Part shown: positions 21,487 through 50,206 of the stretch, piece after piece
Layout of the letters: the number at the start of each line of letters is the position of its first letter
Position numbering within the stretch: position 1 is the first letter of the stretch
Origin: Nitrospirales bacterium
GTDB lineage: Bacteria; Nitrospirota; Nitrospiria; Nitrospirales; UBA8639
DNA: 64,000 bases
Assembly: GCA_963555755.3 (NCBI GenBank)
Contig: OY820905.2
Coordinates: 4,192,001 to 4,256,000, forward strand
Direction: 5' to 3'
Translations under genes and position numbers: made by a program
The notes under the pieces: generated by a model
Seen by the model: only the letters and a program-made list of their open reading frames with translations
Databases searched by the model: none
Told to the model about the DNA's origin: nothing

Positions 21487-21582
21487 CATTTATAGGGCAA
21501 AGACGATGCCAGAGACGTCAATGATAAAATGCTTAAGCTGGATTTTTGTAACGTGTTGGATTTAAAGACAATAATGAATTGT

Positions 21583-22594
21583 TATGCCTTCCCATTTGAC
21601 TAAGGTTAGTCCCTAGACTAGTCTGCTGGACTATGGACACAGGGTATGCTGCTGATATCTTGGATTTTTCTGTTAGGTTCCACACCGAAGAAGCGTGCTT
21701 CGAGTACTTGCGGGCGATTCGGTGGCCAGACGGGTTTATGTGTCCAGCTTGCGGTCATCGCGGTGGTTGGTGGCTCAAAAAATATTTCCGGTTTGAGTGT
21801 TCGTCGTGTCATAGACAGACATCACCGCTAAGCGGCACAGTGATGCATAGATCGCACTTGCCGCTACGGCTTTGGTTTTGGGCTGCCTATTTCGTCTCCA
21901 CGCACACACCTGGCATCAGTGCTGTGCAATTGCAGCGTCAACTCAGTATCAAGAAGGTGGATAGCGCCTGGTATTTGCTCCACAGATTGCGACGAGGAAT
22001 GGTACGACAGAACCGTGAACGGCTCGCAGGAACAGTTGAAGCCGATGAAACCCATATCGGTGGACCGGTAAAAGGCAAAACGGGCCGTGGCGTCGCGAAA
22101 GCGAAAACCAAGACGTTAATAGCCGGAGCCGTAGAAATTGTCACGTACACACAAGGGGATCACTTTCGAGAGAAAGCAGGGCGTTTACGATTAGCGATTC
22201 TTCAAGACGCTGGAGAGAACGAGATCAAAGCATTCCTCAATAGCCATGTCGCTGAGGGCAGTAAGATCAAGTCCGATGGTTGGAAGGGATACTCGGCAAA
22301 AGCCTTGGCAGGATACGAACACCTGAGACGGACCCAGGGTGACCCAGCAAGTGCTGGGAAGCACGCTCCACACATCCATAGAGCGTTCGGCAATCTGCAG
22401 ACCTGGCTGAACGGGATTCACCATGGAGTGGATTCAAAATACCTGCAACACTATCTTGATGAGTTTGTCTTTCGCTATAACCGCCGTGAGACTCCAATGA
22501 GTACCTTCCAGAGTTTGTTGAAAATCCTGACCAGCAGCTCAAAACCCTTGGGATTCAATAAACTGAAGCAACCTTAGTTAAATGGGAAGGCATA
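21583..22594 (+). mobile_element. IS1595-family insertion sequence, 8-bp TSD TGAATTGT
   Basis: TIR TATGCCTTCCCATTT.ACTAAGGTT / AACCTTAGTTAAATGGGAAGGCATA; TSD at 21575-21582 and 22595-22602. Confidence 0.92.
21633..22577 (+). CDS. IS1595-family transposase
   Basis: RWPDGF.CP.C Zn ribbon, VEADETHIGG, SDG..GY, YLDEFVFRYNRR. Confidence 0.95.
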   Translation: MDTGYAADILDFSVRFHTEEACFEYLRAIRWPDGFMCPACGHRGGWWLKKYFRFECSSCHRQTSPLSGTVMHRSHLPLRLWFWAAYFVSTHTPGISAVQLQRQLSIKKVDSAWYLLHRLRRGMVRQNRERLAGTVEADETHIGGPVKGKTGRGVAKAKTKTLIAGAVEIVTYTQGDHFREKAGRLRLAILQDAGENEIKAFLNSHVAEGSKIKSDGWKGYSAKALAGYEHLRRTQGDPASAGKHAPHIHRAFGNLQTWLNGIHHGVDSKYLQHYLDEFVFRYNRRETPMSTFQSLLKILTSSSKPLGFNKLKQP

Positions 22595-25013: not shown

Positions 25014-26917
25014 CAGGGCCATTTCATTCTTTTTATAAGCAAGGGATTCCATGAGGTTTTTTGTGCCCTCTTTTTCAGGGCAGGGCCATGCGGATGGCTA
25101 AATGGGGCTTGCCCCAGAGCAGTCTACACGCCTGCGCGATATTGGTGTAGCCTTTCAGGCGTAAGAGACTGATGGCATAGCGTCTCAGACAGGTCATGAC
25201 CATTGGGCCATTGAGACTTCGTATCTGACTCCTGTCTTCATCAAAGGTGACGTCCAACACATAATGCTGCTTATTCTCCACACTCCAATGCTTTCGGTTT
25301 TGCGAGAGGATGGTCTTCGGCCCCGCCTTGTCTTTGGACTGACTCGTGACACCGCAGACCGCTTCGACGGTCGTGAGGCCCTGCTTGAGATGCGTCACTT
25401 CCCTCTCAATGCAGAAGACTTGCTGGACATGAGGAAAGTTGACATAGGCATTCAGGGAGTCATCGCACCAGATCCTGCGGGTCGTGATCTGCCCATGGCC
25501 TTTCTCGGTGGTGGCATAATCGCACCGGCGTGCTCGCAACGCTAAGGCCTCAATGTCGTGCTTCAAGGTGGGCTGGTTTCCCTTGACGGTGAAGACGAAG
25601 TCGGCGCCGCGTTCGTGCACCAGGTACTCGGCAATCTCTTTCTGGGTGAGGAGCGCATCCGCCGTGATCACCTTCCCTGCGATCTCGAGCGCATCTAACA
25701 GGGGCCGCACGCAGGGGATCTCATTGGTCTTGGAGTGAACTTTTTTTGGGTGAGGTGGCGCCCGGCTTGATGGGTGACGGCGCTGAGGACGTGGGTCTGT
25801 TCGCTTGGGACCTTCGACGTCCCCCGCATGGTCTTCCCATCAATGGCAATGCCCTGATCCTCCCCGCCGAAGGTGTCCAGCCACCGGCCGAGCAGGGTAT
25901 CGACTTCACAGGGGTCGACGGCCGTGATAAAGCGGTAAAGAGTGCTGCGGCTCGGGACGAGGTAGCGCCCCCCTCGCTGAGTACAGCCTAGCCGCTTGCG
26001 CATCGGCTGCGATAACTGCTGGGCCCAGTCCGAGATCGCTTCATAGCCGCGCGCGCCGCACAAGGTGGCACAGAACATGATCGCCGTGAGGGCGCGTCGG
26101 GTGTGCCGTTGCCCTTGCAAATGGCGGGGATCGGTCAGCTGCACCACATACGTAAAGAGGGAGTCCGTCTGTTTTGTATTCAATCTCATCTGAGGCGCTT
26201 CTCCTTTCTGATAGGGCTGATCAAGCATCGGGCGTGCAAGGATCTCTCGGGCTTGGGGATGCAGCCGCACGACTAGGATGCGCTTCGGTCTCTCATGCTG
26301 AACATAACACGTGTTCGACTTGCGAAACCCTCGTGTCAGACCGAGCTCGTGCCACCCGGCGGCCCGATAGCAGGTCCCGGTGAAGCGGGCAGGATCGACG
26401 AAGGTCTCTAAGAGGAGCAAGGGGTAGCCGTGGTACAGTTGCCAATCGGCCGAGATCCGTTTCGCGCAGAGCGACAGGACTTTCGAGGCGAGGTTCTTTT
26501 GCGAACAGCCCGGCAGCATGAGAAACCGGGTGTTGTTGGCCAGTAAATGGAGTCGTTGCCATTGAAAACAGGGGGGCCAGCCGATCCAGTGGTCTCGCGG
26601 TCTCGATTTGAGGGCCGCCGCCGCAAACACCAGCAAGGCCAGCCAGCGATCCTGCACACAGGCGAGATATTGTATCGATTGGCCAATCAGCGGGGCATGA
26701 CCGAGGTAGTGGTGTCTGTCGAGAAGGGTCTTGAAGGCGTCCTTTTCGTCTCGGACAATTGGGCGAACCACGACTTGCCTCAGATCAATGTCCGGCTGTC
26801 CGCTTGGCGATTCGTCTGGCATGCAAAAGAGTATGCCGTAAACGAAAAGAAAAAGCCAGCCTAAATCGATTATTCCTTATTATCTATAAAGTTACACTTT
26901 AATATGAAATAGCCCTG
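25014..26917 (-). mobile_element. ISAs1-family IS carrying DUF4338, copy 1
   Basis: TIR CAGGGC(C/T)ATTTCAT; ORF translations identical to copy 2. Confidence 0.92.
25075..26822 (-). CDS. DUF4338-ISAs1 transposase fusion, split by a -1 frameshift near 25740-25746
   Basis: ORF1: HHYLG, LANNTRFL, LLETFVD, GTCYRAAGW, then DPR..GQRH and IAIDGKTMRG; ORF2: KTNEIP, ITADAL.TQ, VKGNQ, RKHWSVEN, LDVTFDED. Confidence 0.88.
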
Positions 26918-30104: not shown

Positions 30105-32008
30105 CAGGGCCATTTCATTCTTTTTATAAGCAAGGGATTCCATGAGGTTTTTTGTGCGCTCTTTTTCAGGGCAGGGCCATGCGGATGGCTAAATGGGGCT
30201 TGCCCCAGAGCAGTCTACACGCCTGCGCGATATTGGTGTAGCCTTTCAGGCGTAAGAGACTGATGGCATAGCGTCTCAGACAGGTCATGACCATTGGGCC
30301 ATTGAGACTTCGTATCTGACTCCTGTCTTCATCAAAGGTGACGTCCAACACATAATGCTGCTTATTCTCCACACTCCAATGCTTTCGGTTTTGCGAGAGG
30401 ATGGTCTTCGGCCCCGCCTTGTCTTTGGACTGACTCGTGACACCGCAGACCGCTTCGACGGTCGTGAGGCCCTGCTTGAGATGCGTCACTTCCCTCTCAA
30501 TGCAGAAGACTTGCTGGACATGAGGAAAGTTGACATAGGCATTCAGGGAGTCATCGCACCAGATCCTGCGGGTCGTGATCTGCCCATGGCCTTTCTCGGT
30601 GGTGGCATAATCGCACCGGCGTGCTCGCAACGCTAAGGCCTCAATGTCGTGCTTCAAGGTGGGCTGGTTTCCCTTGACGGTGAAGACGAAGTCGGCGCCG
30701 CGTTCGTGCACCAGGTACTCGGCAATCTCTTTCTGGGTGAGGAGCGCATCCGCCGTGATCACCTTCCCTGCGATCTCGAGCGCATCTAACAGGGGCCGCA
30801 CGCAGGGGATCTCATTGGTCTTGGAGTGAACTTTTTTTGGGTGAGGTGGCGCCCGGCTTGATGGGTGACGGCGCTGAGGACGTGGGTCTGTTCGCTTGGG
30901 ACCTTCGACGTCCCCCGCATGGTCTTCCCATCAATGGCAATGCCCTGATCCTCCCCGCCGAAGGTGTCCAGCCACCGGCCGAGCAGGGTATCGACTTCAC
31001 AGGGGTCGACGGCCGTGATAAAGCGGTAAAGAGTGCTGCGGCTCGGGACGAGGTAGCGCCCCCCTCGCTGAGTACAGCCTAGCCGCTTGCGCATCGGCTG
31101 CGATAACTGCTGGGCCCAGTCCGAGATCGCTTCATAGCCGCGCGCGCCGCACAAGGTGGCACAGAACATGATCGCCGTGAGGGCGCGTCGGGTGTGCCGT
31201 TGCCCTTGCAAATGGCGGGGATCGGTCAGCTGCACCACATACGTAAAGAGGGAGTCCGTCTGTTTTGTATTCAATCTCATCTGAGGCGCTTCTCCTTTCT
31301 GATAGGGCTGATCAAGCATCGGGCGTGCAAGGATCTCTCGGGCTTGGGGATGCAGCCGCACGACTAGGATGCGCTTCGGTCTCTCATGCTGAACATAACA
31401 CGTGTTCGACTTGCGAAACCCTCGTGTCAGACCGAGCTCGTGCCACCCGGCGGCCCGATAGCAGGTCCCGGTGAAGCGGGCAGGATCGACGAAGGTCTCT
31501 AAGAGGAGCAAGGGGTAGCCGTGGTACAGTTGCCAATCGGCCGAGATCCGTTTCGCGCAGAGCGACAGGACTTTCGAGGCGAGGTTCTTTTGCGAACAGC
31601 CCGGCAGCATGAGAAACCGGGTGTTGTTGGCCAGTAAATGGAGTCGTTGCCATTGAAAACAGGGGGGCCAGCCGATCCAGTGGTCTCGCGGTCTCGATTT
31701 GAGGGCCGCCGCCGCAAACACCAGCAAGGCCAGCCAGCGATCCTGCACACAGGCGAGATATTGTATCGATTGGCCAATCAGCGGGGCATGACCGAGGTAG
31801 TGGTGTCTGTCGAGAAGGGTCTTGAAGGCGTCCTTTTCGTCTCGGACAATTGGGCGAACCACGACTTGCCTCAGATCAATGTCCGGCTGTCCGCTTGGCG
31901 ATTCGTCTGGCATGCAAAAGAGTATGCCGTAAACGAAAAGAAAAAGCCAGCCTAAATCGATTATTCCTTATTATCTATAAAGTTACACTTTAATATGAAA
32001 TAGCCCTG
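30105..32008 (-). mobile_element. ISAs1-family IS carrying DUF4338, copy 2
   Basis: Repeat of copy 1 at offset 5091. Confidence 0.92.
30166..31913 (-). CDS. DUF4338-ISAs1 transposase fusion (-1 frameshift)
   Basis: Translations identical to 25075-26822. Confidence 0.88.
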
Positions 32009-33135: not shown

Positions 33136-33648
33136 TTATTCAGAATCACCTCGCATCATAAATGGATGGTTCAGAATCCACATTTCATACATGGGGACGG
33201 CAAACATCACCAGAAAACTTAATAGCATGAGGACATCGCCGGATAACATCGTGATCACAAATATTGGGGACACGTACGTGATCAACCAGGGAGATACCAA
33301 ATCCAAGGTGACCCCAAGGAAGGCGGCCCAGGTGGTGATGACTTTTAATGTGGGGCTGATCATCGTGAGGTACAACACGTGAACCATGATCATGAATACT
33401 ACTGGCATGGTGAAAATATGAAAGTGGGTGGTCTCAGCTAACTGTCCAAACGACATGGGCTCGCCGAAGTTGGCATCCGAGCCCCGATAATGTTCGACAA
33501 GGCCTTTTGGTGTGAGATCAGTCATGCTATGTGCCCAAACCAAGGTGAAGGCAAAACCCACAAACATTAAAAGAAGAAACCAGGTGTAGACCAACCGGAT
33601 GTGCCGGTCGGTATCACGGAGCCGAAACCGAGTGTTGAAATTCCGCAT
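33136..33648 (-). CDS. Integral membrane protein (about 4 TM) with membrane-associated His residues
   Basis: EHYRG, ETTHFHIF, MVHV; last gene of the porin/FMN-binding operon. Confidence 0.75.
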   Translation of the reverse strand: MRNFNTRFRLRDTDRHIRLVYTWFLLLMFVGFAFTLVWAHSMTDLTPKGLVEHYRGSDANFGEPMSFGQLAETTHFHIFTMPVVFMIMVHVLYLTMISPTLKVITTWAAFLGVTLDLVSPWLITYVSPIFVITMLSGDVLMLLSFLVMFAVPMYEMWILNHPFMMRGDSE

Positions 33649-33665
33649 TCCAAACGAATCTGATC

Positions 33666-34379
33666 TTAGAGCCCTAAGATTGATTCAATGAATCCTTTTT
33701 CCGCATGGCCAGTGGCGATGACGTTTGTGCCGAGTCCACGGGGTTTTAAATAAAATTCGTTGACCAACACCAACACCCGCTTGACCCCAGCGCTGGCTGA
33801 CCGGACCGACATCGTGGCGCCGGTAATATTAATAATGTCTCGATTGATGCCGACGGGGTCTCCAACGGTCTTTCCTTCATATTGATAATTAAATCGTTTC
33901 CTGGCGATTTCATTGCCGCGTCCTTCGCGGTACACCAGGACTTCGAAATTGATGACCTCGCCCCCAGAATCAACGGCCACCATGTAGGTAATGGGACGAT
34001 GTTTGCCGATGGTATTTTGGACTATAGCGTACCCGTCGATGTCCTCTTTGGTTTCGCCAATATAGACATCAAAAGAGGTTTCCGGAAATTTCCATCCAAT
34101 GGTTTGTTCAACCAGGGTTTTTTGTTCAGGGGTTAATGGGAGTGTTTCTCGTCGGATCGTTTCCGATTCCGGAAACATGACTTTTGCGGCTTCTTCCTCG
34201 GTAAAATAAATCTCAATGTGCCCAAGTTCTTCTTGTGTGAGCCAGCGTTTCAAATCATGGTCATAGATTTTTTCTGGAAGAGAATCCTGGGCAAACACCA
34301 AAGACGGAGCAAATCCAAGCAATATGCTACCAAGGGTAAAAATCCACACAAGTTTTTGAATTAGCTTAAAGTCGCACAT
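33666..34379 (-). CDS. Exported FMN-binding (flavinylated) protein
   Basis: Signal peptide; IGKH.PITYMV, YRE.RG.E, DIINITGATMS containing the [ST]GA[ST] flavinylation motif. Confidence 0.88.
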   Translation of the reverse strand: MCDFKLIQKLVWIFTLGSILLGFAPSLVFAQDSLPEKIYDHDLKRWLTQEELGHIEIYFTEEEAAKVMFPESETIRRETLPLTPEQKTLVEQTIGWKFPETSFDVYIGETKEDIDGYAIVQNTIGKHRPITYMVAVDSGGEVINFEVLVYREGRGNEIARKRFNYQYEGKTVGDPVGINRDIINITGATMSVRSASAGVKRVLVLVNEFYLKPRGLGTNVIATGHAEKGFIESILGL

Positions 34380-34831
34380 CCCTTATCCCTCAGTTGGTTG
34401 GAAATTCGTTGCGCCAAGCGTTGTTCCTCTTCCACGACCGGAGGAATTCGTCTCCAATGAGTTGATTGGGACTGCACACCCATTGGAGAAAAAAATTCTC
34501 TGACTTGGTGAATGGATATTTCAATTGCCTGTGGATCTTGCTCAAGATTGAGAAAAAACCGAGCTCGTTCTTGATTGGCGTCCCGCTCCATAACGCCAGC
34601 TTTTCTTTTTGAGGTAAGGGCAATCCACTCCGTCGCAATGACGCCTTTTTCTTTATCGATTTGCCGAAGCTCAAATTCATCCACGCTCGCCAGGGAAACC
34701 GACCACGCTTGTTCATAGGAACAAGAAGCCCTCACAGTGAGGGGTGCACTTGAAAGGGTCGCGCACCCCACTGTGGAAACGAACAAGAGAAAAGAAAGCA
34801 CTACAAATTTACCCATAGCGGGGATGAACAT
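34361..34831 (-). CDS. Hypothetical lipoprotein
   Basis: VGC lipobox; DKEKGVIATEW motif reminiscent of BamC-like domains. Confidence 0.7.
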   Translation of the reverse strand: MFIPAMGKFVVLSFLLFVSTVGCATLSSAPLTVRASCSYEQAWSVSLASVDEFELRQIDKEKGVIATEWIALTSKRKAGVMERDANQERARFFLNLEQDPQAIEISIHQVREFFSPMGVQSQSTHWRRIPPVVEEEQRLAQRISNQLRDKGCATLS

Positions 34832-34840
34832 TTCTTTCGA

Positions 34841-36331
34841 TTAAAAGTACGTCGTGGCTGAAGCTTGCCAACCGTTGGCCGACCCCGGAGAATGTGCTGG
34901 ACCGACGGTTCCTGCATTATGGTCATTGAAGGTATAGCTAAACTTGACGACAGAATCCTCTGTTGGACGAAGATTGAGCCCCAGCGTGAGCCTGTCGATC
35001 TCATTGGCATTGGTTGAAGAGGCTGTATTCGTGTCAACTTGGCCCCAGCGAATAACGCCAGTAAAGGTTGATGCATCGCTAAAGTATGAGGAAGCCCATT
35101 GCTTTAGGGATGCTGGGAAGAAATGGTAATTTAATTGGATGTAGTATCCACTCATATTGGCCGGTGGAGCACCATTATTAAATGAAGTCGTCGGCATGGT
35201 CGTTCCACCTTCAATATTGGCCCAGGCTGCTTCGCCTTGTAGTTCAAAAAATGAAGTCGTCGGCATGGTCGTTCCACCTTCAATATTGGCCCAGGCTGCT
35301 TCGCCTTGTAGTTCAAAGGGGCCACGTTGAAGGTTTCCGTCAACCGCTAAAATTGTTAACGCATAGTCACTGTTGTCGTCCCAGTAGCCGTGGTGAATAG
35401 AGCCGGCTACCTCCACTCCAAGAATGGGGCTTAATGAAATACGACTGACAACGGCCTTATTTTCATTATTATCCGTTTTGAAACTTCCCCGAGAACTCCG
35501 TAACCCTGAGCTCTCCGTAATTGTGGTTGGCCCGCCGGTTCCAAATCCCATGCCGCCATCAAAGCCCTGTGTGACATAGATTTCATAATCGACTTTGGAA
35601 AGCTGGGTTGGATAAAACGTTCCAAAAAATCCAAACCCGGACTCCGCAAACGTCGAAGGAATGATAAGCCGGGACACCATTGGACGAAGAGGAAGATCAT
35701 TTAACGGTGAATCATGGATCAGGTTGAAACGTCCCATGGGAATTAAAATGATTCCTGCCCGTAGGTTAATCCAGTCTTCGAACCGGTAGTCCATCGTGGC
35801 GAATTCAATTTTGACATCTCCATCGCTTTGGTTGCCTTGTGGGCCACCATGTTCAATCTCGACTTCAGCGGCCACACTCAGTCGATCGGTCACTTGGGAA
35901 TAAAAGAACGGAACAAATCGTTCTTGGTCAAATTCCAACCCACGGGCACAATCTCGTGAGTCGTCATTACAGTCTGTAATCGTAAAATCAATGTAACCAC
36001 CGACAATGGTTTTAGGAGCTTTGACGAATGGTTTGGCGTAGACAGTGCGACCTCCCTGAAGACCACCACCACCGGTAAAGGTATCCCCAAACCGTTGTAC
36101 TTGTTGTGTGGTATCACCCAAGGCCGGCATTTTTTTAGAAAGATCAAGAGATGGAGGGTCAATCTGGGTCATGCCCCCGCCCATCATTTGCTGTTTGGTG
36201 TACCACTCTTGAAACATTTTTTGCATTTGTTCTTGTTGGGCCGGTGTAAATTCTTCACTCTCAGCCCAAACTTGCGTTTGAGGAACAATCATGAGGGCCA
36301 ACATTGCCCCCGCAATCAACAATCGTTTCAT
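34841..36331 (-). CDS. Outer-membrane beta-barrel/porin with internal 23-aa duplication
   Basis: Signal peptide, amphipathic strands, EVEIEHG, RAGIILIPMGRFN, C-terminal aromatic ATTYF; GGAG RBS at 36341-36344. Confidence 0.85.
   Translation of the reverse strand: MKRLLIAGAMLALMIVPQTQVWAESEEFTPAQQEQMQKMFQEWYTKQQMMGGGMTQIDPPSLDLSKKMPALGDTTQQVQRFGDTFTGGGGLQGGRTVYAKPFVKAPKTIVGGYIDFTITDCNDDSRDCARGLEFDQERFVPFFYSQVTDRLSVAAEVEIEHGGPQGNQSDGDVKIEFATMDYRFEDWINLRAGIILIPMGRFNLIHDSPLNDLPLRPMVSRLIIPSTFAESGFGFFGTFYPTQLSKVDYEIYVTQGFDGGMGFGTGGPTTITESSGLRSSRGSFKTDNNENKAVVSRISLSPILGVEVAGSIHHGYWDDNSDYALTILAVDGNLQRGPFELQGEAAWANIEGGTTMPTTSFFELQGEAAWANIEGGTTMPTTSFNNGAPPANMSGYYIQLNYHFFPASLKQWASSYFSDASTFTGVIRWGQVDTNTASSTNANEIDRLTLGLNLRPTEDSVVKFSYTFNDHNAGTVGPAHSPGSANGWQASATTYF
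35180..35317. repeat. Exact 69-bp tandem duplication inside the porin gene
   Basis: FELQGEAAWANIEGGTTMPTTSF occurs twice. Confidence 0.95.
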
Positions 36332-36355
36332 TCGAACGATCTCCAATTGTTGTTG

Positions 36356-36403
36356 GGGACTCTAATGGCCCTCAATGTCATTAAAGGGACTCTTGTGGTC
36401 CTC
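36356..36403 (-). promoter_or_regulatory. Two putative Com-type RNA binding hairpins in the porin leader
   Basis: Minus strand GAGGACCACAAGAGTCCC (36403-36386) and GAGGGCCATTAGAGTCCC (36373-36356), 30 nt apart. Confidence 0.65.
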
Positions 36404-36438
36404 AGTTTACGTTTTGGTGTTTAACGGATTGTAAAACC

Positions 36439-36657
36439 TCATTTGAAAAAGTTGGTCATGGAATTGGTGCATGTAAATATGCTGACTTCATGCGCCTTGA
36501 TACTGGCATAGGGAATAGAAACAATGCGCTTGCACCGTTTGCATTTGAGTTCGAGATTGTCCCCACGAATTTTTGCAATGAGATGGCCACATTCACATCT
36601 TGCCTCACTAGGCTGAAATTGCCGTTCTGGAAGTCTGCTTTTTATTTCTGGACTCAT
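36439..36657 (-). CDS. Small zinc-ribbon protein resembling phage Mu Com
   Basis: EARCECGHLIAK....LELKCKRCK, similar to the Com pattern RCxxCxKLLA...EIKCxRC. Confidence 0.75.
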   Translation of the reverse strand: MSPEIKSRLPERQFQPSEARCECGHLIAKIRGDNLELKCKRCKRIVSIPYASIKAHEVSIFTCTNSMTNFFK

Positions 36658-36708
36658 TGAATTAAAATAAAAAATAGGATAGTTATAAGAGCTAATTAAA
36701 AATTATTA

Positions 36709-36778
36709 TGATATTTATTCTCATTTAAATTGATTTTGATAACTATTATTAATAATGAATTCGTAGGGGTCCTGTCAA
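36709..36778 (-). promoter_or_regulatory. Two Fur-box-like sites overlapping a sigma70-like promoter
   Basis: TGATATTTATTCTCA (36709-36723) and TGATAACTATTATTA (36737-36751) versus TGATAATnATTATCA; TTGACA on the minus strand at 36778-36773 with an AT-rich -10. Confidence 0.7.
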
Positions 36779-36972
36779 CCTCATTCTTTAACGAAATGAT
36801 TGCCACCTAACCTGTTGATTTACATGAATAAATATGGACGGAAATAACTTATCAACGTATATTGTATTAGAGATATCCTTGGCTTCTACGATCACCAACA
36901 CGCGATGTATTTCCATGACTTATACCGATTTGATAGAGAGATGTTTTATGGTCATGCATTCACACTCAGGAA

Positions 36973-38001
36973 ATGATGCAACAGGTTTCTCCCGTTATGC
37001 GTAAACTCTTGGGTTCTGTATTCGGATGTGTGTTGGTGTTGGGGCTGATTGGATGTGGTGCTTCCCCCCATTTGGTCAAACGTGGCCAAATGCATATGGG
37101 GACCTTGGTTTTTTTAACTGCCGTGGCACCGGACGAACAGATTGCCCACGACGCTGTTCAAAAGGGATTTGACGAAATTCACCGGTTGGAAGAAATCCTG
37201 AGTACGTGGATTCCCGAAAGTGAGCTCTCGCGAGTCAATGCGGGGGCGGGGCGAACAGCCATCGCAGTCAGCCAGGAGACATTCGAAGTGTTGGCGAAAT
37301 CCATCGAGATGGACCGTCTGACCGAAGGTGGGTTTAATATTGCCATTGGCCCGGCGGTCGAAGCATGGAATGTGAGCCGGGAGGGACGGATTCCCACACA
37401 AGAAGAGTTGGATGCTGTTCGCCCTTTACTTCACTTAGAGAATCTCCTACTGGACAAAGAATCACGCATGGTGTTCCTTCGCAAGCCAGGGATGCGCGTG
37501 GATATTGGAGGTATTGGCAAAGGCTATGCCGCTGATCTCGCGGCCCATGTTATGCAGCAAGCAGGAGCTACTGCGGGGGTGGTCGCAATCTCAGGTGATA
37601 TCAAGACATTCGGTCGAATGCCTGATGGAGAACGGTTTGTCTTTGGCATTCACCATCCGCGTCATGGGGGTGCGTTATTAGGACAGTTGGAATTGGAAGA
37701 TAAGGCGGTGTCCACAGCCGGAGATTATCAGCGCTACTTTATGAAAGATGGGGTTCGGTATCATCACATCCTTGATCCGCAAACTCTTCAACCGGCTCGT
37801 GCATCCCAAAGCGTCACCGTGGTGGCGAAAGAAGGTGTCCTTGCCGATGGATTGGACACCGGCATCTTTGTGATGGGCCCGGAGAAAGGGATGGCGCTGA
37901 TCGAGAGCCTTGATGGAGTCGAGGGCGTGATTGTGGGGGAAGACGGGGAGGTCTATATTTCGTCGGGGTTGAAAGAGCGATTCCTTCTGAATGATCAGTA
38001 A
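36973..38001 (+). CDS. apbE: FAD:protein FMN transferase (ApbE lipoprotein)
   Basis: MGT, SELSRVN, DIGGIGKGYAAD, STAGDYQRYF, YHHILDPQT, ADGLDT. Confidence 0.95.
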   Translation: MMQQVSPVMRKLLGSVFGCVLVLGLIGCGASPHLVKRGQMHMGTLVFLTAVAPDEQIAHDAVQKGFDEIHRLEEILSTWIPESELSRVNAGAGRTAIAVSQETFEVLAKSIEMDRLTEGGFNIAIGPAVEAWNVSREGRIPTQEELDAVRPLLHLENLLLDKESRMVFLRKPGMRVDIGGIGKGYAADLAAHVMQQAGATAGVVAISGDIKTFGRMPDGERFVFGIHHPRHGGALLGQLELEDKAVSTAGDYQRYFMKDGVRYHHILDPQTLQPARASQSVTVVAKEGVLADGLDTGIFVMGPEKGMALIESLDGVEGVIVGEDGEVYISSGLKERFLLNDQ

Positions 38002-38314: not shown

Positions 38315-39046
38315 TTAATAATTGCCTTTTCCTTTTCCACCGCGGGAATACCCGCTGGCGTGAGATGTGTTGCCGCCGTGGGATTTAATGCGTTCGTGAA
38401 TCTTATTCATCCGTGATTGTTGCTCTTCTGACAACACGGCTTTGGCGGCCCGTTTGGCTTTGATCGAGGCTATGTTCAAATCAGCTTTTAATCCATATAC
38501 ATTTTTGATGTTTCTCTCAATGTCTCCAAGGCTGGATTTATCGTCGCGCAGTAACTCATGCAGGTCGATATTGGCCAGTTGGACATTGGCTTTTATTTTG
38601 ATCCGGTCTTTTCTGTAATTCGTTCTCACATCCCGCAGTTGCTGTTCCTGCTCATCTGTGACGCTCATCCCATCCTTGAATTTCAAAATATGGTCGATGA
38701 ATTTCGTCGCGCCTTGATGTGTGCCTGGGTGGGTGGAACTCCGTCCTCCATGTCCCGACATCCCCTTGCTATGAATTCCCCCGCGTCCAGAACTTTTGGC
38801 ATGGTGAGAATCTCCCATTCCCGGGTAGCCTGTAGAATGGTGCTTGTCTCCATGGATGCTTGCCTGCATGTGTGCAGAGCCCGTTCCACTATGGTGTTTG
38901 CTCGAGTAATTTGAGTCTCCATGGGGTGATCCATGTGGAGAACTGTCGGAGGCTGCCACTGTGGGGCCTGCCAAGGCTAACACGAAAACGCTAGAGAGAG
39001 AACAAACTGAATACCAGGAAAGTGTCGTGACTCCTGTGAATCTCAT
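38315..39046 (-). CDS. Periplasmic His-rich Spy/CpxP/ZraP-like protein
   Basis: Signal peptide, His/Gly/Ser-rich N-terminal region, VTDEQ and LSEEQ (LTxxQ-like) helical motifs. Confidence 0.75.
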   Translation of the reverse strand: MRFTGVTTLSWYSVCSLSSVFVLALAGPTVAASDSSPHGSPHGDSNYSSKHHSGTGSAHMQASIHGDKHHSTGYPGMGDSHHAKSSGRGGIHSKGMSGHGGRSSTHPGTHQGATKFIDHILKFKDGMSVTDEQEQQLRDVRTNYRKDRIKIKANVQLANIDLHELLRDDKSSLGDIERNIKNVYGLKADLNIASIKAKRAAKAVLSEEQQSRMNKIHERIKSHGGNTSHASGYSRGGKGKGNY

Positions 39047-39218: not shown

Positions 39219-40292
39219 TTAGGAATTCCGAGATTGTTCAAACATCACGGTATGTGTGGCCTTCACTTTCAGTTCAACCTGGGCGTTGAGCGCATAGAAT
39301 TGCGTCGAAGATTCGCTGCAATGAACGAGGCGCCCCGATTCGAGACGAAGGCCGTATAAATTTTCCGATCCCCGAAATTGGCGTGTTTCAATTCGGGCTG
39401 AACCGCTCCCACTCCCACGGATTTCAAGGTCATCCGGTCGAATCATGACGTCTACCTGGTTGCTTCCTTGATAGCCTTGCGGAAGCGGCAGATCTCCAAT
39501 TTCAGTCACGACAACATGGTGATGAATCTCGCCGGGAATGAAATCTGCCTGACCGACAAATTCTGCGACAAAACGGGACGCGGGCAAATGATAGGTCGTT
39601 TCCGGTGAGGCAAATTGTTCCAGCCGACCTTGATGAAGAACGGCAACCTGATCGGCCATGGTAAAGGCCTCTTCATGGTCATGGGTGACTAACACCGCCG
39701 TGGTTTGAGTTTTTTTCAACAAATCATGCAGTTCGCCGCGCATTTTATAAGTCATGTCGGGATCGAGATTGCTGAAGGGTTCATCCAATAAGAGCAGCAC
39801 CGGTTGGGGGGCGAGAGCCCGAGCCAATGCCACGCGTTGTTGTTGACCACCAGATAGTTCATGTGGGTAACGGTGTCCGTATTCAGACAATCCGGTCAAA
39901 GAAAGCATATCGTCCACTCGACGACGACGATCGTGAGCGGATAATTGGTTGAGGCCAAAGCCCACGTTATCGGTCACGCGCAGGTGTGGAAACAGTGCAT
40001 ATTCCTGAAATACCATACCCACGCGTCGTTGTTCAGGGGGGACATGGTGGTTGCCATCTGCTACGGGTGTTCCATTCAACAGCACGGTCCCTTCTACAAC
40101 CGATTCAAATCCGGCGATAGCCCTGAGGGTCGTGGTTTTCCCGCAGCCTGAGGGGCCGAGCAAGGAAATGATATCGCCTTTGCGTGCCGTAAACGAAATG
40201 TTGTGAATCGCCGGTTGCCCTGACTCATACGAGCAGGTGACGTGTTGTAGCTCAAGGACAATGGGGTTGTCGTGTGGGGTTGCGTCAGTCAT
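39219..40292 (-). CDS. Fe3+ ABC transporter ATPase (FbpC/FutC-like)
   Basis: GPSGCGKT, VFQEYALFPH, LSGGQQQR, LLDEPFSNLD, C-terminal TOBE-like region. Confidence 0.92.
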   Translation of the reverse strand: MTDATPHDNPIVLELQHVTCSYESGQPAIHNISFTARKGDIISLLGPSGCGKTTTLRAIAGFESVVEGTVLLNGTPVADGNHHVPPEQRRVGMVFQEYALFPHLRVTDNVGFGLNQLSAHDRRRRVDDMLSLTGLSEYGHRYPHELSGGQQQRVALARALAPQPVLLLLDEPFSNLDPDMTYKMRGELHDLLKKTQTTAVLVTHDHEEAFTMADQVAVLHQGRLEQFASPETTYHLPASRFVAEFVGQADFIPGEIHHHVVVTEIGDLPLPQGYQGSNQVDVMIRPDDLEIRGSGSGSARIETRQFRGSENLYGLRLESGRLVHCSESSTQFYALNAQVELKVKATHTVMFEQSRNS

Positions 40293-40392
40293 CGGAAGAT
40301 CGTGATGCGTGATGCGTGATGCGTGAAGCGTGAAGGCGCGAGATCAGAAAGGGGAAGGGGAAATTCTGTGGTGTATCTTCACGCATTACGCA

Positions 40393-42024
40393 TCACGCTT
40401 TACGCTTAACGGGTTCTTGCACTTTTTTCAGTAATAGGAAAACGACGGGAATGGTAATCGCCACGATGAGTAAGGCCGGCGGGGCAGCCAGTTGATACAA
40501 CTCTTCACTCGCTTCCAGCCAAATTCGTATGGCGAGTGTATCGAACCCAACGGGACGCAGCAAGAGGGTCGCGGGCAGTTCTTTCATGCACTGGACAAAG
40601 ACCAAAATCCAGGCACTGAGGAATCCCCCTCGGACCAAGGGAAACGTGACCGTGCGAAACGTGCGTAAGGAACGAGATCCGAGACTTCTAGCCGCCTCTT
40701 CGAGATTCGGGGTCAGTTGATGAAGGGTCGATTCCATGCCCTGCAGCGCCACGGGCAGAAAGTGGACGAGATAGGCAATGAGCAGCACCAGGACCGTGCC
40801 ATATAACTCTGGCATGAGGTGCGAGACCAGAACGAGCACGGCTAAGGCCGCTACGGGGCCTGGTAAGACGTACCCCGTGTAGGCACCTTGGATACACAGA
40901 AGGCTGGCCCATGTTTGTTTGCGACAGGCCAAGTAGGCCAAGGGAATGCCACAGACAAGGGCTAATGTCGCCGTGATGCCGGCAAGGGAAATGGTGTTCC
41001 ACACATACCCCATGAATCCGCTGGCGAGCTCTCCGGCTGCAAGGGCATCCATGGTCCATTGCACCAACAGAAACACGGGGATGCCAAAGGCTGTTGCGAA
41101 GACGATGGTGAGGACTCCGGTGAAGCCAAGGGTTTGTAGGGGACTACAGGCCTGTGGAATCGGCTTTCGAAACCGGCCAGTGGTTTGATAAAACCGACTC
41201 CGTTGTCGAAACCAGCGTTCACCTAACAGGAAGATAAATGTGCAGGATACCAAGAACAGGCTTAAGCAGGCTGCGGCGGTATTGTCGAATCGTCCAGTCA
41301 TTTGTTGATAGATGGCATAGGTGAAGGTTTGATAGCGCAACATCGCCATGGCGCCAAAATCAGAAGCCACATATAGAATGGCCAAGAACAGTCCGGCCAT
41401 AAGCGAGGGCCGGATCATGGGTAGTGACACACGAAAGAAGGTGTTCAGCGGACTGGCACCTGTCGCACGCGCGGCTTCTTCAAAAGAAATATTGAAATTC
41501 TGAAAGGCTGATCGCGCCAATAAATAGACGAAGGGAAACGTGTTGATGGACATGACTAATGTCGCGCCCGCGAAACTGAACGGGGAAAAAATCTGCGCGT
41601 CAGCTCCTGCGACCATTTGCCAGGCATGTTCAAGCGGACCGTTGCGTTGCAAGAGAAATGTATAGGTGTAGGCGAGGACGTACGAAGGAATCGCCAAGGG
41701 TAGAATGATGAGCCAGTTCCACACCGTTGAGCCGACAAAGCGGTAACGAGTGAGAATCCATGCCAGAGAAACGCCTAGAACCAGATCAATCACCGCGACG
41801 CTGAGGGCCAATGAAAATGTGTTGAATAACAATTCAGGAATGCGAGTGGTCCACAGCCTTCGCCAGACTGCCGTGTCAGCCGTGATTGCGGAAACTATCA
41901 CGTACAACAAGGGAAGCGTAATCAGCCCTGCCAGGATAAAGGCGACAACAATCAAAGGAGAAGGAAATCGAAAGCGCGTACGTGACAAGCTGAGGGAAGG
42001 ATTAGCGAAGGCCAACGTGTTCAA
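40393..42024 (-). CDS. Fe3+ ABC transporter permease (FbpB/FutB-like)
   Basis: Two EEAAR loops, PLAIPSYV, KELPATLLLRP. Confidence 0.92.
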   Translation of the reverse strand: MNTLAFANPSLSLSRTRFRFPSPLIVVAFILAGLITLPLLYVIVSAITADTAVWRRLWTTRIPELLFNTFSLALSVAVIDLVLGVSLAWILTRYRFVGSTVWNWLIILPLAIPSYVLAYTYTFLLQRNGPLEHAWQMVAGADAQIFSPFSFAGATLVMSINTFPFVYLLARSAFQNFNISFEEAARATGASPLNTFFRVSLPMIRPSLMAGLFLAILYVASDFGAMAMLRYQTFTYAIYQQMTGRFDNTAAACLSLFLVSCTFIFLLGERWFRQRSRFYQTTGRFRKPIPQACSPLQTLGFTGVLTIVFATAFGIPVFLLVQWTMDALAAGELASGFMGYVWNTISLAGITATLALVCGIPLAYLACRKQTWASLLCIQGAYTGYVLPGPVAALAVLVLVSHLMPELYGTVLVLLIAYLVHFLPVALQGMESTLHQLTPNLEEAARSLGSRSLRTFRTVTFPLVRGGFLSAWILVFVQCMKELPATLLLRPVGFDTLAIRIWLEASEELYQLAAPPALLIVAITIPVVFLLLKKVQEPVKRKA

Positions 42025-43030
42025 TCACGGTCATGGTGGGATCGCGGAGTTCAGCTAAACGGGAAAGGGGAACGCGCGCGACTTGAAAGCTTTTCAGGGG
42101 AAGCAGCTCGGGTGCAGCATCAACGTTGGCATTGAGTGGGTATTCTTTGTTGACGCTGGCGAACATCTGTTGTCCTTTGGTGGAGATAAGGAATTGGACT
42201 AGCGCTTTAGCCTGGGCCAGGTGTTTCGCATGTGCGGTGATGCCAATGCCCGCGGCATTTAAGACAAGGCCCATGCCGTTTTCTTCTTGATCAAGTAACA
42301 ACTGGGCAATCGGGGCATCGGGATGCTTGGCTAAATGGCGATAGATGTAATAGTGGTTCACGAGTCCGACCGCCACGTCGCCTCGTGCCACAGCCGCAAC
42401 AATCTGCCGGTTCTTTCCATACACCGATGAGCCGGCATTATCTTTGAGACCACGCAAAAACTCTTTGGTGACCGCGTCGCCTTTAGTCTCACGAATCACC
42501 GACACACCAGTTTGCAAATATACACTCCCGGCACTCGGAATGGCTACTTTCCCTTTCCACTGGGGTTTGGCAAGGTCCAAGATTGAAGAAAGAGCATCCG
42601 GCTTCACCATCGTCGTGTTATAGACCACCACCCAAATGCGTCCGGACAATCCGATCCAACTATTATCTGGAGCCCGAAACGATTGAGGAATAGCGGCTTC
42701 GATTCCGGGCATGTCAATGGCTTGGAGCAGATGAAGCTCACGCGCACGTTCGAGGGTCCCGGCATCGTTGGTGATAAAGACATCAGCAGGTGAGCGTTTC
42801 CCTTCCATCCTGAGCCGATTCACGAGGGCCGTACTATCGGCAGTGAGCATCTGAATAGCAATGCCGGATTCAGCCTGAAAAGCGTCGAGCACAGGTTTAA
42901 TCAAGCGCTCAGCTCGACCGGAATAAACCACGAGCGAATCACCAGAAAACGACAGTGGGGGGGCGCATAGGAGGGAGACGATAAGACAAACAGAATAGGT
43001 AAGGATTCTAGCTGTGGATTGAGAACGCAC
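42002..43030 (-). CDS. Fe3+ ABC transporter substrate-binding protein (FbpA/FutA-like)
   Basis: VYSGR, EG.RSPADVF, VNHYY iron-ligand Tyr pair, EYP. Confidence 0.92.
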   Translation of the reverse strand: MRSQSTARILTYSVCLIVSLLCAPPLSFSGDSLVVYSGRAERLIKPVLDAFQAESGIAIQMLTADSTALVNRLRMEGKRSPADVFITNDAGTLERARELHLLQAIDMPGIEAAIPQSFRAPDNSWIGLSGRIWVVVYNTTMVKPDALSSILDLAKPQWKGKVAIPSAGSVYLQTGVSVIRETKGDAVTKEFLRGLKDNAGSSVYGKNRQIVAAVARGDVAVGLVNHYYIYRHLAKHPDAPIAQLLLDQEENGMGLVLNAAGIGITAHAKHLAQAKALVQFLISTKGQQMFASVNKEYPLNANVDAAPELLPLKSFQVARVPLSRLAELRDPTMTVIEHVGLR

Positions 43031-43037
43031 GCGCTCG

Positions 43038-43520
43038 CTACCTTCGACCTGTTTGGGTGTTCAGTGCACGGCCACAGTTCTTGCACTCTCCATTGGGAAG
43101 CTGAACGGGATCGCCATAGATCTCAAGTTTGTGCGTATGAATCGTGAATCCATTTTTTCGTGCCACTTCTTCCTGAAGGTCCTCAATTTGGCAGTTCTCA
43201 AATTCGATGATTTTGTCGCAGGTCGTGCAGATCAAGTGGTCATGATGCCCCTTGTGCGAGACGTTATCAAACTTGGTTTGGGAGCCGAAGTGCTGTTCCT
43301 GGGCCATTCCGGTCTCACACAAGAGCTTTAACGTTCGATACACCGTGGCCAAACCGATGTGCGGATCCTTCTTGGCGAGCATGCGATACATCTGCTCCGC
43401 TGTCACATGTTCCATTTTGAGAAACGTGGTAAGGATGTTTTCCCGTTGCCGGGTGAGTTTCAGATTGTTCTTGGTCAGGTGCTGCTTGAGAATTTCGAGT
43501 TCTTTGGTGGGTTTCGCCAT
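43038..43520 (-). CDS. fur: Fur-family transcriptional regulator
   Basis: TRQR, HVTAE, GLATVYRTL, HHDHLICxxC, C-terminal CKNC. Confidence 0.9.
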   Translation of the reverse strand: MAKPTKELEILKQHLTKNNLKLTRQRENILTTFLKMEHVTAEQMYRMLAKKDPHIGLATVYRTLKLLCETGMAQEQHFGSQTKFDNVSHKGHHDHLICTTCDKIIEFENCQIEDLQEEVARKNGFTIHTHKLEIYGDPVQLPNGECKNCGRALNTQTGRR

Positions 43521-43620
43521 TAGTGGATTCTCTTTCTCAATTGAATATCCTATTAAAACCAAAAAAAGACAACAGGGTCAAGCCAAAAATGGGAGAGGTT
43601 GTGTTGTATGTGGTTTTCCC

Positions 43621-44117
43621 TCTGTCATTTCGACCCTTGGGAGAAATCTCTCATTCGACAATGAGGGGAGATTTCTCGCTCCACTCGAAATGACAAGACC
43701 GTTGTGATCTGTCATTTCGACCCTTGGGAGAAATCTCTCGTTCGACAATGGGGGGAGATTTCTCGCTCCGCTCGAAATGACAAGACCGTTGTGATCTGTC
43801 ATTTCGACCCTTGGGAGAAATCTCTCATTCGACAATGAGGGGAGATTTCTCGCTCCGCTCGAAATGACAAGACCGTTGTGATCTGTCATTTCGACCCTTG
43901 GGAGAAATCTCTCGTTCGACAATGTGGGGGAGATTTCTCGCTCCGCTCGAAATGACAAGACCGTTGTGATCTGTCTCGACCCTTGGGAGAAATGACAAGA
44001 CCGTTGTGATCTGTCATTTCGGGGAGATCTCTCATTCGACAATGAGGGGAGATTTCTCGCTCCACTCGAAATGACAAGACCGTTGTGATGTAAGGGGTTC
44101 TCCCAAGGGTCGAAATG
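43621..44117. repeat. Tandem array of 87-bp family C hairpin units (4 full units plus degenerate ones)
   Basis: Units start at 43621, 43708, 43795, 43882; each is GTCATTTCGA..GAGAAATCTC..GAGATTTCTC..TCGAAATGAC plus a constant linker. Confidence 0.92.
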
Positions 44118-44177
44118 GCCACACAGTTGTTATGTCACGTTGTTCTTTCATTTTCTGTTTCGGTCGTGGGTCCTCGA

Positions 44178-45956: not shown

Positions 45957-47859
45957 CAGGGCTAATTCATATTAGAGTGTAACTTTATAGATAATAAGGA
46001 ATAATCGATTTAGGCTGGCTTTTTCTTTTCGTTTACAGCATACTCTTTTGCATGCCAGACGAATCGCCCAGCGGACAGCCGGTCATTGATCTGAGGCAAG
46101 TCGTGGTTCGCCCAATTGTCCGGGACGAGCAGGACGCCTTCAAGTCCCTCCTCGCCCGACATCACTACCTCGGGCCTGCCCCGTTGATTGGCCCCTCGAT
46201 CCAATATCTCGCCTGTGTGCAGGATCGCTGGCTGGCCTTGCTGGTGTTTGCGGCGGCGGCCCTCAAATCGAAACCGCGCGACCACTGGATCGGCTGGCCC
46301 CCCTGTTTTCACTGGCAACGCCTCCATTTACTGGCCAACAACACCCGGTTTCTCATCCTGCCGGACTGCTCGCAAAAGAACCTCGCCTCGAAAGTCCTGG
46401 CGCTCTGCGCGAAACGGATCGCGGCCGATTGGCAACTGTGCCACGGCTACCCCTTGCTCCTCTTAGAGACCTTCGTCGATCCTGCCCGCTTCACCGGGAC
46501 CTGCTATCGAGCCGCCGGGTGGCAGGAGCTCGGGCTGACACGAGGGTTTCGCAAGTCCAATACGCGGTATGTTCAGCATGACCGCCCGAAACGCATCCTG
46601 GTCAAGAGCCTCCATCCCCAAGCCCGAGAGATTCTTGCACGCCCGATGCTTGATCAGCCCTATCAGAAAGGAGAAGCGCCTCAGATGAGATTGAATACAA
46701 AACAGACGGACTCCCTCTTTACGTATGTGGTGCAGCTGACCGATCCCCGCCATTTGCAAGGGCAACGGCACACCCGACGCGCCCTCACGGCGATCATGTT
46801 CTGTGCCACCTTGTGCGGCGCGCGCGGCTATGAAGCGATCTCGGACTGGGCCCAGCAGTTATCGCAGCCGATGCGCAAGCGGCTAGGCTGTACTCAGCGA
46901 GGGGGGCGCTACCTCGTCCCGAGCCGCAGCACTCTTTACCGCTTTATCACGGCCGTCGACCCCTGTGAAGTCGATACCCTGCTCGGCCGGTGGCTGGACA
47001 CCTTCGGCGGGGAGGATCAGGGCATTGCCATTGATGGCAAGACCATGCGGGGGACTTCGAAGGTCCCGAGCGAACAGACCCATGTCCTCAGTGCCGTCAC
47101 CCATGACGAGGGGCGCCACCTCACCCAAAAAAAGTTAACTCCAAAACCAATGAGATCCCCTGCGTGCGGCCCCTGTTAGATGCGCTCGAGATCGCAGGGA
47201 AGGTGATCACGGCGGATGCGCTCCTCACCCAGAAAGAGATTGCCGAGTACCTGGTGCACGAACGCGGCGCCGACTTCGTCTTCACCGTCAAGGGAAACCA
47301 GCCCACCTTGAAGCACGACATTGAGGCCTTGGCGTTGCGAGCACGCCGGTGTGATTATGCCACCACCGAGAAAGGCCATGGGCAGATCACGACCCGCAGG
47401 ATCTGGTGCGATGACTCCCTGAATGCCTATGTCAACTTTCCTCATGTCCAGCAAGTCTTCTGCATTGAGAGGGAAGTGACGCATCTCAAGCAGGGCCTCA
47501 CGACCGTCGAAGCGGTCTGCGGTGTCACGAGTCAGTCCAAAGACAAGGCGGGGCCGAAGACCATCCTCTCGCAAAACCGAAAGCATTGGAGTGTGGAGAA
47601 TAAGCAGCATTATGTGTTGGACGTCACCTTTGATGAAGACCGGAGTCAGATCAGACGGCTCAATGGCCCGATGGTCATGACCTGTCTGAGACGCTATGCC
47701 ATCAGTCTCTTACGCGTGAAAGGCAACACCAATATCGCGCAGGCGTTTAGATGGCTCTGGGCCAAGCCGCATGTAGCCATCCGTATGGCCTTGCCCTGAA
47801 AAAGAGAGCAAAAAAACCTAATGGAACCACTTGCTTATAAAAAGAATGAAATGGCCCTG
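45957..47859 (+). mobile_element. ISAs1-family IS carrying DUF4338, diverged copy 3, no TSD
   Basis: CAGGGCTAATTCAT / ATGAAATGGCCCTG ends; flanks AGTCAAGCCC and GGGGGAGTCT differ. Confidence 0.9.
46052..47799 (+). CDS. DUF4338-ISAs1 transposase fusion, -1 frameshift at A AAA AAG (47128-47134)
   Basis: The shift joins LTQKK to VNSKTNEIPCVRPLLD. Confidence 0.88.
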
Positions 47860-49318: not shown

Positions 49319-50206
49319 ATGAATGAAGCGATTACATGTCAAGGTCGTCGCCTCCCCCAATCTGATCTGTGCTGGTTACGCCATCTGGTTTGCCGGCACC
49401 CTGACTGGAGCCGCCATAAAATAACCCAGCATATTTGTCGGCACTGGGGCTGGCAGACCCCGTCCGGACAACTGAAAACCTTTGCCGCCCGCAGCATGAT
49501 CGACAAACTCGAACATCGCGGGCTCCTGAAGCTGCCCCCGATTCGTGTCGCCTCTCGACGCAACATCTTCCCCCCTTTCCGAAAGGGGTTTATGCCTCCC
49601 GAAGCCCCGCACATCGACGCAGCTCTCAAGACCCTGACGCCCCTGTCCATTCATATTCCAACCTCACATTCCTACGAAGCCAGTTGTGTGGGATATTACC
49701 TGAGCCACCATCACTACCTCGGGTTCACCCGAACGGTCGGTGAACATCTCAAGTACCTGGTGCGGGATCGCTCCGGGCAGGATCTGGCCTGCCTCCTCTT
49801 CGGTTCCGCCGCCTGGAAAACCACCCCGCGCGACACCTTTATCGGCTGGGAGCCGGACACCCGAGCCGCCAACCTCAACTTCATGACCAACAATACCCGC
49901 TTTCTCATCCTGCCCTGGGTGCGTGTGCCGCATCTGGCCAGCCATCTCCTGGGCCGGGTCATGAGACGTCTCCGGCAGGACTGGATCGAGAAATACGGCC
50001 ATCCCGTCCACTTGGTGGAGACCTTTGTGGAGCGAGACCGCTTCAAAGGTATCTGCTATCAGGCCGCGAACTGGCTCTATGTCGGGCAGACCAAAGGCCG
50101 GTCCCGGCAGGACCGTGACAAGGCTCTGCGCGTGCCGGTGAAGGCAATTTATCTCTATCCCCTCATCCGCCACTTCCGACAGGCCCTCTGCCGGAGCAAG
50201 CCATGA
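49319..50206 (+). CDS. DUF4338 (DruA-like) domain protein
   Basis: HHYLG, F.SAAWK..RD.FIGW, NNTRFLILPW, LASH.L, VETFV, G.CYQAANW..VGQTKGR. Confidence 0.85.
   Translation: MNEAITCQGRRLPQSDLCWLRHLVCRHPDWSRHKITQHICRHWGWQTPSGQLKTFAARSMIDKLEHRGLLKLPPIRVASRRNIFPPFRKGFMPPEAPHIDAALKTLTPLSIHIPTSHSYEASCVGYYLSHHHYLGFTRTVGEHLKYLVRDRSGQDLACLLFGSAAWKTTPRDTFIGWEPDTRAANLNFMTNNTRFLILPWVRVPHLASHLLGRVMRRLRQDWIEKYGHPVHLVETFVERDRFKGICYQAANWLYVGQTKGRSRQDRDKALRVPVKAIYLYPLIRHFRQALCRSKP

Follow-up and report, generated by a model that had tools for sequence, protein, structure and literature searches.

In antitermination of the BglG/LicT RAT type, a small hairpin stabilised by protein shares sequence with the 5' side of an intrinsic terminator. 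Closer to the locus described here is the Com-mom pair of phage Mu. In the passages available from PMC6483171, the motif obtained for Com by SELEX is given as NGAGNNCC(N)2-3GAGNNCCNN, of which the bound part is CC(N)2-3GAG presented by the loop of a hairpin; in the model set out there, Com binding melts a neighbouring translation-inhibitory structure on the mom mRNA, and the Cys site of Mu Com is described as coordinating zinc, without a sensing role. An earlier note on this DNA had described Com as a zinc-finger activator with a hairpin consensus and an adjacent inhibitory structure, and these passages agree with it. Literature listings and the opening parts of abstracts, outside the subscription literature, gave no description of Com acting from a chromosome, and the main texts of PMC11109978 and PMC5737381 did not contain the terms looked for; both papers list many RNA motifs, and their supplements may bear on novelty. 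Clusters of ApbE and FMN-binding genes are linked to iron assimilation in the passages available from PMC8238504.

The window (the whole 64,000-nucleotide stretch that was analysed) carries on its minus strand an operon in the order TTGACA, two Fur-like sites, com-like ORF, RNA boxes, porin, lipoprotein, FMN-binding protein and hydrophobic protein. Its promoter elements, genes and neighbours are:

36773..36778, minus strand: TTGACA, probable -35 of the operon promoter, by sequence
36737..36751, no strand assigned: first Fur-type 7-1-7 site, 2 mismatches, overlying what is probably the -10/+1 region
36709..36723, no strand assigned: Fur-type 7-1-7 site 2, 2 mismatches
36439..36657, minus strand: com-like Cys4 zinc-ribbon gene, 72 aa, RCECGHLIAK...LELKCKRC, CxC...CxxC
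34841..36331, minus strand: predicted outer-membrane porin, 496 aa, the proposed target gene (Pfam Porin_O_P, E 2e-5, partial match)
34361..34831, minus strand: probable lipoprotein, 156 aa (weak NlpB/DapX and DUF3576 matches, below the cut-off)
33666..34379, minus strand: secreted FMN-binding protein (Pfam FMN_bind, E 4e-7; TGAT motif in the sequence)
33136..33648, minus strand: small hydrophobic protein, 170 aa, final operon gene (no family above the cut-off)
36973..38001, plus strand: ApbE flavin transferase, beyond the Fur sites and divergently oriented (Pfam ApbE, E 5e-80)
39219..43562, minus strand: Fur-family regulator (43038-43562) and ABC transporter (Pfam FUR, E 1e-36; SBP_bac_6, BPD_transp_1, ABC_tran)

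The TGAT motif of the FMN-binding protein is one that we take to be of the flavinylation type, the 170-aa hydrophobic protein is probably an inner-membrane protein, and the ABC transporter is probably of the Fe3+ (Fbp/Fut) type. Transporter and Fur-family gene lie within 7 kb (the Fur-family gene 6.3 kb off), and the Fur-type sites, the ApbE and FMN-binding pair (PMC8238504) and these neighbours together point to iron as the probable substrate of the operon. Pfam scans of 50 window ORFs gave insertion sequences and housekeeping genes and no phage genes, which bears out the metal-uptake setting free of phage genes that the earlier note had described. RNA-library contigs run from the ORF across the boxes into the porin (one of X1 over 35618-36635, without a difference, and one of X3 over 36255-36555); contigs give neither strand nor single transcript.

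Several other features of the window were recorded. A histidine-rich secreted Spy/CpxP-like protein, possibly metal-binding, is encoded between the ABC transporter and apbE (38315-39046, minus strand), and tandem repeats of ~90 nt lie just upstream of the fur gene (43600-44120), where they are visible as repeated peptides in spurious ORFs. The porin gene contains an exact in-frame 69-nt tandem duplication (35180-35317, minus strand), one copy of which is skipped in an RNA-library contig of run X1, as may result from a strain variant or an assembly artefact. Insertion-sequence copies with a DruA-like domain fused to or adjoining the transposase are present at 25078-26822, 30166-31913, 46052-47796 and 49319-51648, and IS1595-type genes at 20852-22574.

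The possibility that the com-like ORF is a chance or non-coding frame was ruled out by its homologs, found in 49 of 61 related genomes, and by the distribution of differences over the three codon positions (2486/759/6548 in 29 distinct cores), which is the pattern of a coding gene, with differences mostly at third positions. The likeness to Com put forward by the earlier note was borne out as distant kinship in profile comparisons, and the curated Pfam cut-off was not reached. The window protein matched PHROG 6417 (translational regulator) at E 2e-4 and PHROG gpCom at E 0.012, and the aligned homologs matched these at E<=0.05 in 37/38 and 33/38 cases, respectively. Comparison of a 38-sequence profile with Mu Com, translated from the Mu record, gave 96% in hhalign (E 1.6e-9, 31 columns), the other hhalign comparison to Mu Com gave 84%, and the Atlas match to a PF10122 cluster scored 0.91 at rank 13. 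Pfam PF10122 (Zn_ribbon_Com) was not matched by the window protein at its cut-off and gave weak matches in 4/29 homologs (best E 0.029). All four Cys are invariant in 38/38 homologs, and the first knuckle is CxC, whereas that of Mu Com is CxxC. The protein was modelled as a small three-strand fold (pLDDT 77), for which Foldseek against the PDB returned nothing at E<=0.001. Judged by sequence, it appears to be a distant but consistent relative of Com with a shortened first knuckle, outside the family as the curated cut-off draws it.

A prophage remnant as the source of the locus was ruled out by the Pfam scans of the window together with searches of a phage collection, which gave no real match, and of viral contigs, which gave 2 weak partial loci. 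The com-like gene itself has no recognisable Shine-Dalgarno (SD) sequence, only an AT-rich leader (36645-36690, minus strand). Damaged copies were also seen: at L032 (G046:C31) the com-like gene is divergent and the box decayed, with the anti-box intact; at L099 (G052:C34) the gene has an internal deletion and the box is intact; and at L066 (G028:C1) the gene is frameshifted.

The Fur-like sites were scored against the 7-1-7 consensus. The window has no others, the genome has 18 with these two included, and an upstream Fur-type site with <=3 mismatches was found in 50/57 ortholog loci vs 2/218 control windows, which upholds the earlier note in calling them Fur-box-like. TTGAC is followed by a Fur-type site after 15-24 nt in 44/57 loci; a consensus promoter scan called no promoter at TTGACA (36773-36778) and found no canonical -10. 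These putative Fur-type sites are likely bound by some Fur-family regulator.

The com-like stop codon is separated from the porin AUG (36331) by 107 nt, and this interval and the start of the porin gene hold the following RNA elements:

36386..36403, minus strand: distal Com box (box 1), predicted hairpin with a stem of 4 bp, its C-N4-GA loop closed by C-G
36356..36373, minus strand: proximal Com box (box 2), predicted hairpin, mutually exclusive with anti-box pairing and with SD pairing
36341..36344, minus strand: porin SD sequence GGAG, its columns conserved in the alignment
36317..36352, minus strand: predicted inner stem between 36344-36352 and codons 3-5 (36317-36325), which holds the SD and AUG and persists with the boxes held
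36293..36311, minus strand: anti-box, complementary to box 2, within the signal-peptide codons of the porin at +21 to +39, with GGGGC (+22 to +26) as its core

The two boxes are 18 nt each and lie 30 nt apart from start to start; the boxes, the 72-aa Cys4 ORF and both Fur-like sites were all found where the earlier note had placed them, with the sequences that it gave for the boxes. The pattern GAG-N2-CC-N2-5-GAG-N2-CC, selected after the boxes had been seen, matched the 4.6-Mb genome 24 times vs 43.9 expected (order-4 Markov; 0.0005 per 107 nt), and the window boxes were the only tandem pair among these 24 matches. Conservation in orthologous leaders was checked, and a box precedes the same porin in 30/30 best-hit loci, the loci having been chosen by protein. 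Across 62 distinct boxes, the statistics of which are partly fixed by the search pattern, stem position 2 is AU in 49, GU in 7 and GC in 6, with no mismatches though the pattern allowed one; the closing C-G pair is present in 61, and the loop is N2-3 in 36, N4 in 23 (window boxes included) and longer in 3. This C...GA loop closed by C-G is the loop of the Mu target. Two tandem boxes are found in one family and an apparent nested double in Nitrospira-like genomes; the start-to-start spacing of tandem boxes ranges from 28 to 55 nt across lineages, and the gap from com-like stop to box ranges from overlap to >200 nt.

Gene and site co-occur in two phyla. Within a phylum sample of 151 genomes, which are kin and not independent, both genes were present in 35, the porin only in 2 and the com-like gene only in 2. 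Porin homologs that have no com-like gene are without the box (7 homologs: L074-L078, L082, L083), and the anti-box is missing in 4/4 of those whose start was located. Boxes with no adjacent com-like gene precede two porin paralogs, L084 (G054) and the second porin of L085 (G155); both host genomes encode a com-like protein elsewhere, and these porins are candidate trans targets. As for a wider regulon, no further box ahead of a gene was recognised among the 24 loose matches in the window genome. The strict pattern gave counts similar to a reversed control in five other genomes, and the total for a loose variant was not above control, only the positions of some matches being informative. A known RNA family was ruled out by scans with Rfam covariance models, which gave only a chance SmY match (E 0.57) in 36200-37100 and none at E<=0.5 in 8 related loci. 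A palindromic repeat is interspersed through the genome (41 core matches, e.g. near window positions 47383 and 47799, minus strand, and at G000:C1:221776 and 823405); ~9 copies hold a box-like hairpin with U for the first C of the loop, and a relation to the boxes is improbable.

In the full-length minimum-energy fold, the whole proximal box is paired with porin codons 7-13, enclosing the inner stem, SD and AUG (-39.7 kcal/mol over 85 nt). The duplex of box and coding sequence in the window has a predicted energy of -32.0 kcal/mol vs a mean of -15.4 over 300 synonymous recodings, none of which was equally stable. The same comparison was made for 61 records from 60/61 loci (64 less the three spurious reverse-strand records L015-, L016- and L017+; L032 has no record), and 39 of these beat synonymous recoding at p<=0.05. 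A full partner of the box core lies at +22 to +25 in 51/61 records (at +22 in 46, +25 in 4 and +24 in 1) vs 18% of other porin windows; the anti-box core is missing in 10/61. The glycine codon of the anti-box is GGG in 33/36 full-length records, whereas the top codon accounts for <=62% at 21 other conserved Gly columns, and the anti-box bases are kept where the residue changes, as with Arg AGG and Trp TGG and also with Thr, Ile and Val. A pair flanking the box:anti-box helix flips between G-C, C-G, A-U and U-A among lineages, in ~3 separate events on the tree (34/61 records used; the pair is mismatched in 9/34 tree rows), and 24/32 distinct combinations are paired vs 14.1 when shuffled. RNAalifold selects this helix; in 19 same-family sequences its 11 pairs were not above shuffled controls (93 of 500), because they are too invariant within one family. 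Folding 36310-36445 alone gave z = -0.9, because that segment ends at the anti-box. The main inhibitory structure is predicted to be the long-range pairing of the box with codons 7-13, rather than a short stem between box and SD.

The effect of this helix on ribosome access was computed with the boxes held in their hairpin form. The cost of opening the core (-16..+13) goes from 11.7 to 10.6 kcal/mol in the window, and among the 61 records it falls by >2 kcal/mol in 17 and rises by >2 in 10; it barely moves because this region lies inside the outer helix and the inner stem remains in place. The median drop for -16..+25 is 4.9 kcal/mol, with 49/61 records dropping by >2. Mu mom was equally flat in the core-RBS test, and addition of a 4-nt protein footprint took it from 10.9 to 5.1 kcal/mol; the core RBS of the window locus does not open with the added 4-nt footprint. 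The predicted effect of the box:anti-box helix on ribosome access is thus equivocal. Holding both boxes costs 16.5 kcal/mol relative to the free ensemble. As the held state is ~16 kcal/mol less stable than the OFF fold, a kinetic switch that works during transcription is probable.

Paralogs of the com-like gene show a second arrangement. A related site, made up of a stem, a C...GA internal loop and an inserted hairpin, lies just after the gene in 37 of 77 paralog loci (L176 excluded from the count) and was not found in the other 40, nor in most weaker paralogs. In 32 of the 37 site-bearing loci it takes in part of the 5' arm of a predicted terminator, and terminator-overlapping sites often precede TonB-dependent receptors: the 21 downstream proteins scanned from 35 such loci comprised 12 such receptors, 1 secretin/TonB N-terminal fragment, 3 HlyD-like proteins, 2 HD-domain proteins, 1 AraC protein and 2 that were unmatched. 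Nitrospira-family genomes with the translational-type site also carry a terminator-type site ~3.3 kb further along the same operon (4/4). At L216, L218, L219 and L225, all Nitrospira-family, the terminator-overlapping site stands at the end of the porin operon and is followed by an HD-domain gene, with an AraC-type regulator next in L216. In the class around the Thermincola genome, homologs are found in 12/14 genomes, for the most part two in tandem and accompanied by repeats of a site-plus-terminator element. Up to five such repeats go with the tandem com-like genes at L176, L183-L193 and L197, and the genes downstream of the repeats encode CxxCH motifs and are probably c-type cytochromes. 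Because site formation would relieve a block in both the paralog and the Thermincola settings, an activator is favoured, and box formation appears to mean ON in translational and terminator settings alike.

We consider it probable that the com-like protein binds the boxes and thereby turns on porin translation, and that gene and boxes form a conserved chromosomal protein-plus-RNA module like Mu Com-mom. The RNA switch might be equally real and be thrown by a metal ion, a metabolite, another protein or ribosomes on the upstream ORF, with the zinc-ribbon gene merely an operon-mate, as the boxes without an adjacent gene (L084 and the second porin of L085) and the many site-less paralogs could suggest. 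We hold this to be unlikely: with its 4-bp stem the element is tiny for an aptamer and matches the loop bound by Com, gene and site are found together in two phyla, the gene-less sites sit in protein-encoding genomes, and a stop-to-box gap that runs from overlap to >200 nt fits translational coupling poorly. Less probable still is that the protein binds the boxes and represses, either because ribosome standby would be blocked or because the inner stem would be stabilised. Such an outcome would agree with the 10/61 records in which the core RBS becomes harder to open with the boxes held, and with the persistence of the inner stem; it is at odds with the 32 paralog loci in which site formation would break a terminator, with a conserved hairpin-destroying anti-box, which is most easily understood as the OFF state in which no protein is bound, and with the activity of Mu Com as an activator.

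That the boxes are DNA operators for a DNA-binding regulator, as direct repeats ~three helical turns apart, is brought to mind by the 30-bp spacing and by the automatic cluster name 'Com family DNA-binding transcriptional regulator'. We regard it as very improbable, since the sites lie ~350 nt downstream of the probable promoter, the spacing ranges from 28 to 55 nt with a nested form in some lineages, the stem pairs co-vary and a complementary anti-box is retained in coding sequence. There is as little to be expected of a mechanism in which activation works mainly through a short stem between the 3' half of the proximal box and the SD region, the anti-box being secondary. This anti-RBS pairing was the OFF state proposed by the earlier note, of which it stands that the stem can form: 82% of cells pair in 19 sequences, and the box core pairs with the SD region in 38/61 local folds of box-to-AUG segments. 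The pairing is, however, weak (-4.7 kcal/mol in the window) and not above shuffles (57 of 500), pyrimidine runs generally pair with the SD, and the stem is missing from the full-length minimum-energy fold of the window and from full-length folds of the records, where the box half pairs with coding sequence in 42/61; the dominant OFF fold is the box with codons 7-13. The short stem may be a passing weak intermediate at most.

If the com-like protein acts through the boxes as an activator, the locus would work as follows. Fur would repress the promoter in plentiful iron, and iron shortage would yield one mRNA that runs from the com-like gene through the boxes into the porin. As long as the protein is missing, the proximal box would pair with porin codons 7-13 and clamp the inner stem over SD and AUG (~-40 kcal/mol in the 85-nt segment). 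Once enough protein had been made, the C...GA-loop hairpins would be captured on emergence, before the anti-box is transcribed; with the anti-box ~45 nt beyond the hairpins, the protein would have to catch them first, as in a kinetic switch. Capture would leave only the weaker inner stem, on which ribosomes could load, and the net effect would be a threshold or delay beneath Fur. More tentatively, and with considerable doubt, Com-like zinc ribbons might constitute an undescribed bacterial class of RNA-binding activators of metal uptake, in which one protein with one RNA motif serves as translational activator or antiterminator according to context, even within one operon, and the Cys4 site provides a second metal input (e.g. 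zinc vs iron) beneath Fur.

Com has previously been known as an oddity of a phage and as a tool for RNA tethering, and if chromosomes make conserved use of it, iron control would gain a post-transcriptional tier. The energy metabolism of nitrite oxidisers is heavily iron-dependent, and this tier would concern them and apparently at least one further phylum. With two 18-nt boxes and the anti-box, the element is compact and completely defined, and the anti-box is removable by one synonymous codon change; its signal-peptide codons would be a clear case of codons constrained by RNA structure. Com-like modules might also supply synthetic switches with new protein-RNA pairs.

Compared with the described systems, the locus resembles the ApbE flavinylation clusters of PMC8238504, as far as the passages available show, in having ApbE and a secreted FMN-binding protein beside iron-uptake genes; it differs from them in that the word 'porin' and the stem 'Nitrospir' are absent from the main text of that paper and a Com-like regulatory layer is not in those passages. 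It shares with BglG/LicT RAT the overlap of sites with the terminator 5' arm, which is seen at the paralog loci, and departs from it in an unrelated protein fold and, at the window locus, in an output of translation instead of termination. The likeness is greatest to Mu Com-mom (PF10122; PHROG 13819, 6417): in both, a small Cys4 zinc ribbon is encoded by the first gene of its own target mRNA, the target hairpin has a C...GA loop closed by C-G and lies just upstream of the RBS of the next gene, and the 3' bases of the box are common to a structure that hides the start region. Unlike the Mu system, the window system is chromosomal, conserved across an order and placed behind Fur-type sites, with the com-like gene outside a Mu-like prophage and not ahead of mom or a methylase; its target is a porin/flavinylation operon instead of a DNA-modifying enzyme. 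The first knuckle of the protein is CxC instead of CxxC, and the spacer in the boxes is 4 nt long, which exceeds the N2-3 of the SELEX motif by one. There are two tandem boxes in the window (nested in Nitrospira), relatives overlap the site with terminators, and the predicted inhibitory pairing is a long-range one that reaches codons 7-13 and surrounds the AUG instead of pairing with it.
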